Source: Fibrobacter sp. UBA4309 (GTDB lineage: Bacteria; Fibrobacterota; Fibrobacteria; Fibrobacterales; Fibrobacteraceae). From it: a stretch of 64,000 nt of DNA. Below, in pieces: positions 42,628 to 44,855 of the stretch; positions within the stretch are counted from its first letter, which is position 1; the number at the start of each line of letters is the position of its first letter. The translations under genes were made by a program, and so were the position numbers. Location: NCBI RefSeq assembly GCF_002395745.1, contig NZ_DGUN01000027.1:19958-83957 (forward strand), read 5' to 3'. The notes under the pieces were generated by a model. The model had not been told where the DNA came from and made no database searches. It worked only from the letters and a program-made list of their open reading frames with translations.

Positions 42628-43100
42628 TGTCCCGTCTTTCCACGTTGCTGTGCTGCGTCCTTCTGGCTGTGACTACGGGACTTGCCGCCCCTGCAAAGCC
42701 CAAGCTGGTTCACTGGATGGGCTATTCCGAGGCGCTTGAGAAGGCGAAGAACTCTGCCAAGCTGGTTTTTGTCGACCTCTATGCGGACTGGTGCGTCCCT
42801 TGCCGCGTGATGGATGCGAACGTCTACTCCGACCCGACCGTGGCCTCGATTCTGAATACCAGGTTCTATCCCGTAAAGCTGAACACGGATTCCCAGGACA
42901 CGATTATGTGCGACGGCCAGAAGAAAACGGTGCAGGAATGTTATTTCCAGGTGTGGGAACTGCATGCGTTGCCCGCCTTCGTGTTGATTGCCCCGAAAGG
43001 TCTTTCTATATTGACAGTAACGGATTCCATGAGCCCCCAGGAGCTGCAGATGCTGTTGCTGCAGTTCCTTGACAAAGAGAAGGAGTGGATAGAACGATGA
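42624..43100 (+). CDS. Exported thioredoxin-family protein
   Basis: Signal peptide, VDLYADWCVPC, LPAFVLI. Confidence 0.85.
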   Translation: MMSRLSTLLCCVLLAVTTGLAAPAKPKLVHWMGYSEALEKAKNSAKLVFVDLYADWCVPCRVMDANVYSDPTVASILNTRFYPVKLNTDSQDTIMCDGQKKTVQECYFQVWELHALPAFVLIAPKGLSILTVTDSMSPQELQMLLLQFLDKEKEWIER

Positions 43101-44725
43101 ACGACCAGGTTTTACTCTACTTGCAGATTGCGTTCTGGGTGCTCGTCTTTTTGTTGGTCCTCTGTTATTGCCTTTTTCCGCTGTCATTGCCTTTCGTGAG
43201 CGAACTTTTCAAGCGCCGCCACCGCCATATCGACAAGAATTTTGAATTGCCGATGGTGACGCTCCTGATTTCTGCCTATAACGAAGAGGCGGTTATCGAA
43301 CGCAAGATAAAGAACATCCAGGAAATCGATTACCCCAAGGAAAAGCTGGAAGTCTTGATTGGCGACGACGGTTCCGCCGATGCGACTGCCGAAATCGTGG
43401 CGCGGTATGCCGATCAGGGAATCACCTTGGTCAAGGCCCCGAAAAACGCCGGCAAGGCGGCGATGCTCAACCGTCTGCAGAAACTGGCTCATGGCGAAAT
43501 CCTCGTGTTCTGCGATGCGAATACGATGTTCTTCCCGAATGTGATCCGCAAGCTGGTCGCCCCGTTCTGCGATACAAAAATCGGTTGCGTCTGCGGACAC
43601 CTGATTCTTTCGGACAAGAGCGGTAGCGTCCTTGGCCGCGGCGAAAGTTCGTATTGGGATCTGGAATCCGAGATAAAGAAGTTCGAAGGTGTCCTGGACC
43701 GCCTGATAGGCGGCAATGGCGCCCTGTACGCTATCCGCAGGGAACTCTATACGGAACTGCCCGTGAAAAAGAGCGTCATGGACGACTTCTTCATTACGAC
43801 CAAGATTTTGCAGAAAGGTTATTTCTGTACGTTCGTCCCGAGCGCAATCGGTACGGAACAGACCTCGAAAGAAGGCGGTGGCGAATACCGCCGCAAGGTG
43901 CGTATCGGCCGCGCGAATTTCAATTACCTGTTCTCTTACCTGCCGCTGCTGAATCCGTTCAGGCCCCTGCTCGCCTATCTGTTCCTTTCGCACAAGCTTC
44001 TGCGCTGGTTCTCCCCGCATATCCTGATTCTGCTCTTTATTATCAATGCCCTGCTCTTGACGGAAGGGACCGTCTACTGCGTGACCTTTGCCATGATGGT
44101 CCTTACTGCGCTTGTCTGCGTGACGAAGATTGTGCCGAGCGCCTTTTATTTCGTTTCTATGAACATGGCGCTGCTCAAGGGATTCTTCCTGGCTTTCCGT
44201 AGGGAAAAGAGTGGCGGCTGGTCTCGCGAGGCCAGAAGCGATGACGACGAAAGTGCCGCCGTGGCTGTCAAGGCGCTCCCGCTGGTATTTGCCTGTGCTG
44301 TCGCCATGAGCTCCGCTCCTGCGAACGCGTTTACGATGGATGTCCAGGGTGGCGTCGTCAACCACGTGAGCGAAATAACGGACTTCAACCTGAGCATTTA
44401 TGGCCATTGGTGGTATCCTATCGACCAGATGGTCTTTGTTGGCATCGGTGGCGGTTATCAGGAAATCGACAATGTCGGTCTCGTGCCGCTGAGTGCCAGT
44501 GCCTGGATTCGTCTGCCGATGGGCGGACAGACTCTCCCTGTCGTTACAGGGGATCTCGGCTACCTGATCGGCAGTGACCATCAGCTATTCTGGAGGACCG
44601 GCGGTGGCTTGGATATCAAGAATGGCGACTATTCTTCTATCATGCTCATGGGCGGATACGAATTCCTGGAGCACGACGGCAAGGGATTCATTTATCTGCA
44701 GGCCGGCATCTTGATCGAACTTTAG
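43097..44725 (+). CDS. GT2 (CESA-like) glycosyltransferase fused to an internal signal peptide and a small outer-membrane beta-barrel
   Basis: ISAYNEE, DDGS, GKAA, CDAN, DDF, RKVR. After the TMs and W..EAR come KALPLVFACAVAMSSAPANA and eight alternating strands ending YLQAGILIEL. Confidence 0.8.
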   Translation: MNDQVLLYLQIAFWVLVFLLVLCYCLFPLSLPFVSELFKRRHRHIDKNFELPMVTLLISAYNEEAVIERKIKNIQEIDYPKEKLEVLIGDDGSADATAEIVARYADQGITLVKAPKNAGKAAMLNRLQKLAHGEILVFCDANTMFFPNVIRKLVAPFCDTKIGCVCGHLILSDKSGSVLGRGESSYWDLESEIKKFEGVLDRLIGGNGALYAIRRELYTELPVKKSVMDDFFITTKILQKGYFCTFVPSAIGTEQTSKEGGGEYRRKVRIGRANFNYLFSYLPLLNPFRPLLAYLFLSHKLLRWFSPHILILLFIINALLLTEGTVYCVTFAMMVLTALVCVTKIVPSAFYFVSMNMALLKGFFLAFRREKSGGWSREARSDDDESAAVAVKALPLVFACAVAMSSAPANAFTMDVQGGVVNHVSEITDFNLSIYGHWWYPIDQMVFVGIGGGYQEIDNVGLVPLSASAWIRLPMGGQTLPVVTGDLGYLIGSDHQLFWRTGGGLDIKNGDYSSIMLMGGYEFLEHDGKGFIYLQAGILIEL

Positions 44726-44732
44726 CCAACTT

Positions 44733-44855
44733 TCTACCGCCTACTGTCTACTAACCACTGTTTACTTAACCACTTTAACAAGAGTGATGGATCCTCGGCC
44801 TTTGGCCAAGGATGACACTGCCAATTAAACACACTTCACATTGCGACGGAGTCGC
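44733..44855. repeat. Heptamer run, REP-like element and GGA-triloop mini-hairpin between convergent genes
   Basis: YYACT heptamers 44733-44774, minus-strand GTCATCCTTGGCCAAAGGCCGAGGATCC at 44789-44816, GCGAC-GGA-GTCGC at 44843-44855. Confidence 0.8.

Follow-up and report, generated by a model that had tools for sequence, protein, structure and literature searches.

Our analysis of a 64,000-nucleotide (nt) stretch of the genome of Fibrobacter sp. UBA4309 (contig NZ_DGUN01000027.1, positions 19,958 to 83,957; here referred to as the window and numbered from its first letter) revealed an open reading frame (ORF) in which a membrane glycosyltransferase of family 2 (GT2) is fused with a small barrel domain. 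The ORF listing and the translation confirmed that the frame at positions 43097 to 44725 of the plus strand is single and uninterrupted and comprises 542 codons plus a stop codon. An earlier note on this DNA had described in it a GT2 terminus, an acidic linker, a signal peptide-like segment, and an A-N-A motif, all of which are present at the positions listed in Table 1. The same 542-amino-acid fusion was found with 99% identity on an independent contig in the public collection (P0003), and therefore the open frame is not an error of assembly. Comparative evidence gives good support to the reading that the ORF is likely to encode a natural polyprotein that would be cut by signal peptidase I (SPase I) into an inner-membrane GT2 and an outer-membrane barrel.

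The segment at the junction, residues 392 to 411 (KALPLVFACAVAMSSAPANA), has the features of a type I signal peptide. The lysine K392 is followed by a 12-residue h-region with a hydropathy of 1.99 and by the c-region SSAPANA; its A-N-A ends at nt 44329, and the predicted SPase I site lies between positions 44329 and 44330. Although the h-regions have diverged, an alanine at −1 and an A, S, or V at −3 were kept in all 31 fused species compared, as was a short hydrophobic core, and a proline in the c-region was usual. The assignment of the segment as an SPase I-type signal peptide in the earlier note is thus consistent with features preserved throughout these species. The acidic linker in front of it, which opens with SDDDES (residues 381 to 386), varies from 3 to 15 residues among the same species, and the frame is never broken. 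Within one genus, three of five species lack any basic n-region residue in the stretch from the GT2 tail up to the hydrophobic core, and the other two have a single lysine four residues after REAR. In relatives with a separate barrel gene, the N-terminal signal peptide of that gene aligns with the internal segment, and the cleavage sites of the two coincide. Among the nine fused Fibrobacter species, in which synonymous sites are saturated, the ratio of nonsynonymous to synonymous substitutions (dN/dS) was 0.27 for the linker and signal peptide versus 0.062 for the GT2 and 0.066 for the barrel, and these values point to strong purifying selection on the barrel.

We propose that the N-terminal part constitutes a PcManGT/PgaC-like GT2 of the inner membrane with three transmembrane (TM) helices and with its basic tail RREKSGGWSREAR in the cytoplasm. 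The internal hydrophobic segment, presumably the former N-terminal signal peptide of a neighboring gene, would insert as a start-transfer helix in the N-in/C-out orientation that SPase I requires, and SecYEG would thread the 131 residues that follow it into the periplasm. SPase I would then cut after A-N-A, between residues 411 and 412, which would leave the GT2 with one extra C-terminal TM helix, and the freed barrel precursor (FTMDVQ...) would be folded into the outer membrane by the beta-barrel assembly machinery (BAM) via its beta-signal-like C terminus. Because strand 1 directly follows the A-x-A motif and the uncut chain cannot span the periplasm, cleavage would be the only route of the barrel to the outer membrane. 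The term "self-processing," by which the protein had been described, does not apply, as the cut would be made by the signal peptidase I of the cell and not by the protein. Genes for both SPase I and BamA are present in the genome. The SPase I gene occupies a 466-codon frame (G000:C22:14693-15913) approximately 5 kb upstream of the window start, and the matches to the two halves of the family profile (profile positions 5 to 98 and 117 to 161) are approximately 640 nt apart, which implies a large insertion in the enzyme.

The C-terminal domain is predicted to be an eight-stranded outer-membrane barrel. An AlphaFold2 model based on a 130-sequence alignment contained eight antiparallel strands with short connections (mean predicted local distance difference test score [pLDDT], 94.1; predicted TM-score [pTM], 0.83), and these matched the eight amphipathic strands that had been read from the letters alone. 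Strand 1 begins at the residue right after A-N-A. When the model was compared with the PDB by Foldseek, the top 12 matches were all outer-membrane or designed transmembrane barrels and included NspA (TM-score, 0.74), the barrel domains of OprF and OmpA, PagL, Ail, OmpX, and OmpW. The 131 residues comprise 22 glycines and only 4 lysines or arginines. The domain ends in G-I-L-I-E-L, with aliphatic residues at both Phi positions of the beta-signal motif G-x-x-Phi-x-Phi (PMC13067283), while distant homologues terminate in RGGVLLEF, where, within G-V-L-L-E-F, only the terminal Phe is aromatic. Conservation was 0.68 to 0.78 in the three predicted periplasmic turns versus 0.17 to 0.36 in the four very short outer loops, which are 2 to 8 residues long; on this model, the conserved face of the barrel is its periplasmic end.

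The predicted fold is like that of the small eight-stranded barrels NspA, OmpA/OprF (N-terminal domains), OmpX/Ail, PagL, and OmpW (TM-scores of 0.62 to 0.74), and the free forms of the Fibrobacter domain likewise have an N-terminal signal peptide and a beta-signal-like C terminus. The domain differs from these proteins in its low identity to them (10 to 16%), in its very short loops, and in the location of its conserved residues in the periplasmic turns. The part from position 44261 onward had no Pfam or NCBIfam match at an E value of ≤1, including the profiles of the named small outer-membrane families (OmpA-like, OmpX/Ail, OmpW, PagL, PagP, and YaiO). The barrel family is small and restricted to Fibrobacterota; in a collection of 1.84 billion proteins it is represented by 49 sequences at the 50% identity level, and its named members are all "hypothetical." No barrel gene other than the fused copy is present in the genome, which is 96% complete.

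As for the N-terminal part, a PF00535 match of 82.9 bits over residues 56 to 185, against a cutoff of 23.3 bits, places it within family GT2. Processive cellulose synthase-like GT2s such as BcsA, NodC, HAS, and PgaC are marked by the motif Q(Q/R)xRW, which lies in the interfacial helix that follows their catalytic domain. This motif was not found; the aligned residues 266 to 270 read RKVRI and are invariant in 23 fused homologues. The nearest curated NCBIfam families, PgaC/IcaA, MftF, and NodC, all scored far below their cutoffs, with 82 bits for the PgaC/IcaA equivalog TIGR03937 against a curated cutoff of 422.3, and the Pfam profile search revealed no PilZ domain in the fused protein. Over residues 51 to 304, the nearest solved sequence relative is PcManGT (PDB 6YV7-9; E value of 9 × 10−21 for 6YV7), a membrane mannosyltransferase with a minimal cellulose synthase-like fold, which differs in being archaeal, in its known donor and acceptor, and in having no barrel partner.

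Hydropathy analysis showed two clear TM helices in the C-terminal part of the GT2 (residues 309 to 327 and 328 to 346), flanked by amphipathic and probably interfacial helices at residues 291 to 304 and 347 to 367. The latter has a weaker hydropathy, is highly conserved, and contains Asn and Lys. The residues Y351, F352, M355, N356, K361, and G362 are conserved in the alignment of fused homologues, and the GT2 terminus, ...YFVSMNMALLKGFFLAFRREKSGGWSREAR (residues 351 to 380), contains positions invariant in 23 of them. We favor a three-TM, N-out/C-in layout because it obeys the positive-inside rule and agrees with the three antiparallel TM helices of PcManGT (PMC10569066). From this layout we infer a cytoplasmic location of the tail RREKSGGWSREAR, which contains five Lys/Arg residues; the sole alternative topology would place all five in the periplasm. 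The same tail is the usual C terminus of the GT2 in split-gene relatives, in which the stop codon falls 3 to 5 codons later. The GT2 part alone, corresponding to residues ~1 to 381, is widespread without the barrel at 30 to 40% identity in Bacteroidota (Pedobacter and Dyadobacter), Ignavibacteria, Planctomycetota, and others (L107 to L170). The barrel partner would thus appear to be a Fibrobacterota-specific addition to a widespread GT2.

Table 1. Features of the fused ORF in the window
Feature	Positions	Strand	Evidence or remark
Whole fused ORF: GT2, linker, internal signal peptide, and barrel	43097..44725	+	ORF translation; 99% identical protein on independent contig
N-terminal TM helix, residues 5-28, followed by positive cluster KRRHRH (predicted cytoplasmic side)	43109..43180	+	Hydropathy 2.74; helix 3-39 in full-length model
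GT-A catalytic domain, family GT2, residues 52-269	43250..43903	+	PF00535 3e-23, PF13641 5e-16; nearest structure PcManGT 6YV7, E 9e-21
C-terminal GT2 helices, residues 291-367	43967..44197	+	Hydropathy, full-length model, conservation
Conserved basic tail RREKSGGWSREAR, residues 368-380	44198..44236	+	Invariant E370 G373 G374 W375 R377 E378 R380
Acidic, poorly conserved linker SDDDESAAVAV, residues 381-391	44237..44269	+	Contains GTG 44261-44263, a possible but unconserved internal start
Putative internal signal peptide: K392, h-region ALPLVFACAVAM, c-region SSAPANA	44270..44329	+	Hydropathy 1.99; motif features; alignment to signal peptide of relatives
Predicted eight-stranded outer-membrane beta-barrel, 131 amino acids, residues 412-542	44330..44722	+	AlphaFold2 pLDDT 94.1, pTM 0.83; Foldseek; dN/dS 0.066
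C-terminal beta-signal-like QAGILIEL	44699..44722	+	G-x-x-hydrophobic-x-hydrophobic pattern

Several points weigh against the proposed processing. The cleavage, the topology of the tail, the outer-membrane location of the barrel, and a 1:1 stoichiometry or functional coupling of the two products are what we infer. The call of a signal peptide rests on motif features, and the n-region is weak, with one lysine after an acidic linker whose net charge ranges from −1 to −4. The last residue of the barrel is a leucine, in contrast to the aromatic residue typical of Escherichia coli beta-signals. The full-length AlphaFold model (23 fused sequences) had a pLDDT of 65.8, with values below 50 across residues 365 to 410, and is mute on the junction; it was too poor and was left out of the topology assignment and the fold search. 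Finally, GTG 44261 in the window is suitably placed for an internal start, and part of the barrel could arise there.

If this GTG were the main start (M-A-V-K-A-L-P...), the barrel would be made largely as an ordinary secreted precursor from one of two overlapping genes, and the read-through product would be a tolerated by-product. We regard this explanation as unlikely. A GTG three codons before the lysine is present in 4 of the 9 fused Fibrobacter (the window's own genome G000, L002, L003, and L018), and in L002 it is preceded by GGAGG 7 nt upstream, but the codon is GTT, GTC, or ATC in the other 5. Among the 31 fused species, 15 have no ATG, GTG, or TTG in the stretch that starts at the GT2 tail and extends four residues into the hydrophobic h-region. 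Since no start codon precedes the hydrophobic core in these 15 species, the barrel would be made there only as part of the fusion, and on this codon evidence internal initiation cannot be its general route. No clear Shine-Dalgarno motif was found before GTG 44261, a sigma-70 promoter scan yielded nothing at the fused junction, and the promoter-like TTATATTTnG box of split relatives is absent from fused junctions. Moreover, ribosomes that translate the GT2 reach no stop codon, and hence the fusion is made regardless; the frame has also been kept through every indel in the linker. The internal start that the earlier note had offered as an alternative is thus possible in this strain, but it does not extend to the 15 startless species. 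A conserved GTG before the lysine had seemed plausible when it was found in three of three species; this candidate failed once more species were included.

In a number of split forms, the barrel gene may have initiation signals of its own. A box, TTATATTT(A/T/G)G followed by ..GAG.., lies approximately 20 nt before the barrel ATG in many split species (L006 to L009, L028, L029, L031, L034, L037, and L052). Given its similarity to TAnnTTTG, the −7 promoter element of Bacteroidota, the split barrel gene may have its own promoter. In three species with an ATGA overlap (L040, L043, and L048; genomes G088, G113, and G041), the codons for E-A-R-S read GAA GCA AGG AGC and thereby create a Shine-Dalgarno motif, AAGGAG, that lies 8 nt upstream of the start codon of the barrel. 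The window encodes the same E-A-R-S as GAG GCC AGA AGC, without the AAGGAG motif.

A second explanation is that the fusion stays uncleaved, with the internal segment serving as a permanent fourth TM helix and the C-terminal domain remaining attached on the periplasmic side of the inner membrane as one more GT2 domain. The weak and acidic n-region and the fact that internal signal-like segments are not always cut would both accommodate such an anchor. The uncharged stretch is 14 to 23 residues long, but this includes the c-region, and the core proper is short (12 residues in the window). The proline-containing c-region (proline usual) and the alanine at −1 (31 of 31) were kept, and they would have no reason to persist in an anchor. 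Furthermore, the domain is homologous over its whole length to the free, signal peptide-bearing proteins of relatives, and it has the fold, the Gly-rich and Lys/Arg-poor composition, and the beta-signal-like end of outer-membrane barrels. We know of no outer-membrane barrel that folds at the inner membrane. Taken together, these observations make an uncleaved fusion improbable.

The third explanation, an assembly error or a recent, neutral, strain-specific loss of the stop codon, could appeal to the two genes present in most Fibrobacter, some of which are one mutation from fusion, but it was refuted by the occurrence of the fusion in 39 species genomes of 7 genera, by the preservation of the frame despite saturated synonymous divergence among fused species, and by a rooted tree on which the fusion is probably ancestral.

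The distribution of the fused and split forms bears this out. In nearly all of the 101 Fibrobacter species genomes, the GT2 and the barrel lie side by side, and the stop-free form is present in 9 of the 99 genomes with a match. In the family Fibrobacteraceae, the gene is present in 130 species genomes, of which 39 have the stop-free fusion, and six sister genera are uniformly fused (19/19, 5/5, 3/3, 1/1, 1/1, and 1/1 genomes), whereas the other families of the class Fibrobacteria have two separate genes. The fused proteins form 24 clusters at 90% identity in the public protein collection, including one from the isolate Fibrobacter sp. UWP2, and the fusion was found in isolates as well as in metagenome-assembled genomes, on independent contigs. 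Two separate genes in relatives had been named beforehand as an observation that would speak against the fusion; most Fibrobacter are indeed split, but the six sister genera are not. Two public records titled "Sodaliphilus sp." (L093; CAVKYI010000008.1) and "Alistipes onderdonkii" (L094; CAVKGV010000002.1) contain a Fibrobacteraceae-type fused gene of 64 to 65% identity, and the organism labels of both are probably wrong. One genome, G135, has two fused copies (C69:4467-6092 and C159:2748-4373) that are 99% and 89% identical to P0020; the bin probably contains a mixture of strains, and a duplication is the less likely source.

The split pair of most Fibrobacter and of the other Fibrobacteria families is orthologous to the two parts of the fusion (72 to 88% and 61 to 87% identity within the genus for the GT2 and the barrel, respectively) and lies in the same neighborhood. 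The split form differs by a stop codon, an ATG start (MKK...), a spacer, and in some cases the promoter-like box, while the window has neither the stop nor the ATG. The spacers range from a 14-nt overlap or an ATGA overlap, through one in-frame TAG plus one codon, to approximately 260 nt. L019 is split by one in-frame TAG and is thus a single mutation from fusion. Because the spacers include such a TAG and the ATGA overlap, the split and fused states can be regarded as one mutation apart. The long spacers (222 to 259 nt) of the split loci L010, L011, and L012 (genomes G006, G023, and G002) are full of GTCATCC...GGATC-type repeats that resemble repetitive extragenic palindromic (REP) elements.

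To place these states in order, a tree was built from the GT2 concatenated with the mature barrel, excluding the junction, and was rooted on the other Fibrobacteria families. The all-fused genera were placed either outside the Fibrobacter clade or next to it, and the outgroup families were of the split type. The fused/split label requires at least 6 changes on this tree, 4 of which are forced by well-supported branches. The simplest history would be a single old fusion event with several later fissions inside Fibrobacter; one fission with later re-fusions needs an equal number of steps. Retention of an old fusion is favored because the fused signal peptides of four genera, Fibrobacter and three others, share a K-x-L-P-F start, in contrast to the MK(K/R)ILTAILFA common to the signal peptides of split forms. 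The fusion is therefore best described as probably ancestral to Fibrobacteraceae, as far as these alignments and the tree can tell, with the two-gene layout of most Fibrobacter probably derived; the recent loss of a stop codon that the earlier note had allowed for does not fit such an age. By domain sequence, the closest relatives of the window (G018, G093, and G102; 88% identity in the GT2) have a split-type junction, and the junction was probably exchanged by recombination or changed more than once. The view that the fusion is a derived event inside Fibrobacter, to which these split relatives had pointed, was overturned by the family-wide search and the rooted tree. In some deeper lineages of Fibrobacteria, the barrel gene lies apart from the GT2 orthologue, and in others it has no close GT2 orthologue (G027 and G030 of family f4; G032, G038, and G040 of family f6), and the GT2-barrel pairing is therefore not obligatory across the class.

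The fused ORF lies in a tightly packed gene string, in which clpP, ftsY, a small lipoprotein gene, and a thioredoxin-like gene precede the GT2. Its ATG 43097 overlaps the stop codon of the thioredoxin-like gene (ATGA), an alternative start, GTG 43085, is located upstream, and its own stop codon occupies positions 44723 to 44725. The neighboring ftsY had been taken as support for cotranslational insertion; ftsY is a housekeeping gene, however, and the same clpP-ftsY-lipoprotein-thioredoxin-GT2 string is also present in split-gene relatives, which deprives the argument of its force. A REP-like element at 44789 to 44816, just downstream of the fused ORF, belongs to the same repeat family as those in the long split spacers.

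The closest analogue documented is AcsAB of Gluconacetobacter/Komagataeibacter, a fusion of BcsA and BcsB in which one polypeptide is proteolytically processed into two proteins (PMC4877109). Like the Fibrobacter ORF, it joins an inner-membrane GT2 to an exported partner that is encoded separately in other bacteria. In AcsAB, however, the GT2 part is a genuinely processive cellulose synthase, in which both QxxRW and PilZ are present, and the partner is the periplasmic, inner-membrane-anchored BcsB, whereas the Fibrobacter fusion has RKVRI, no PilZ, and a predicted outer-membrane barrel. In the cytochrome b-c1 polyprotein FbcH of Bradyrhizobium japonicum, signal peptidase cuts at an internal signal peptide, and one gene thereby yields two mature proteins. 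Both FbcH products stay at the inner membrane in one complex, while the second Fibrobacter product is predicted for the other membrane. The design would thus belong to the already known class of signal peptidase-processed membrane polyproteins, and it is the predicted outer-membrane destination of the second half that sets the Fibrobacter fusion apart from AcsAB and FbcH. Full-text literature searches yielded no description of a polyprotein that combines an inner-membrane enzyme with an outer-membrane barrel.

Outer-membrane proteins are usually seen as free precursors with an N-terminal signal peptide, whereas in dozens of species the C-terminal end of a polytopic inner-membrane enzyme appears to be the only precursor that this barrel has. 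Should cleavage occur as proposed, the fusion would represent a clean natural case of one gene that supplies both membranes of a diderm cell, and it could help to reveal how an outer-membrane protein emerging from a chain targeted by the signal recognition particle (SRP) is handled by SecYEG, signal peptidase I, and BAM. The ATGA overlap, the single in-frame stop, and the full fusion would then form a comparative series on what, if anything, the fusion provides: stoichiometry, colocalization, or nothing. It is conceivable, though doubtful, that the fusion is an ancestral and selectively maintained route, in which the barrel is exported cotranslationally from an SRP-targeted enzyme and released by SPase I at the site of the GT2, giving a 1:1 pair that is spatially coupled across the envelope and serves a glycolipid or glycan. 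Were that so, the switching between split and fused forms within Fibrobacter would amount to a natural experiment on outer-membrane protein targeting. Collectively, our analysis marks this barrel family, which is specific to Fibrobacterota, together with its GT2 partner as a likely envelope biogenesis module in major fiber-degrading gut bacteria.

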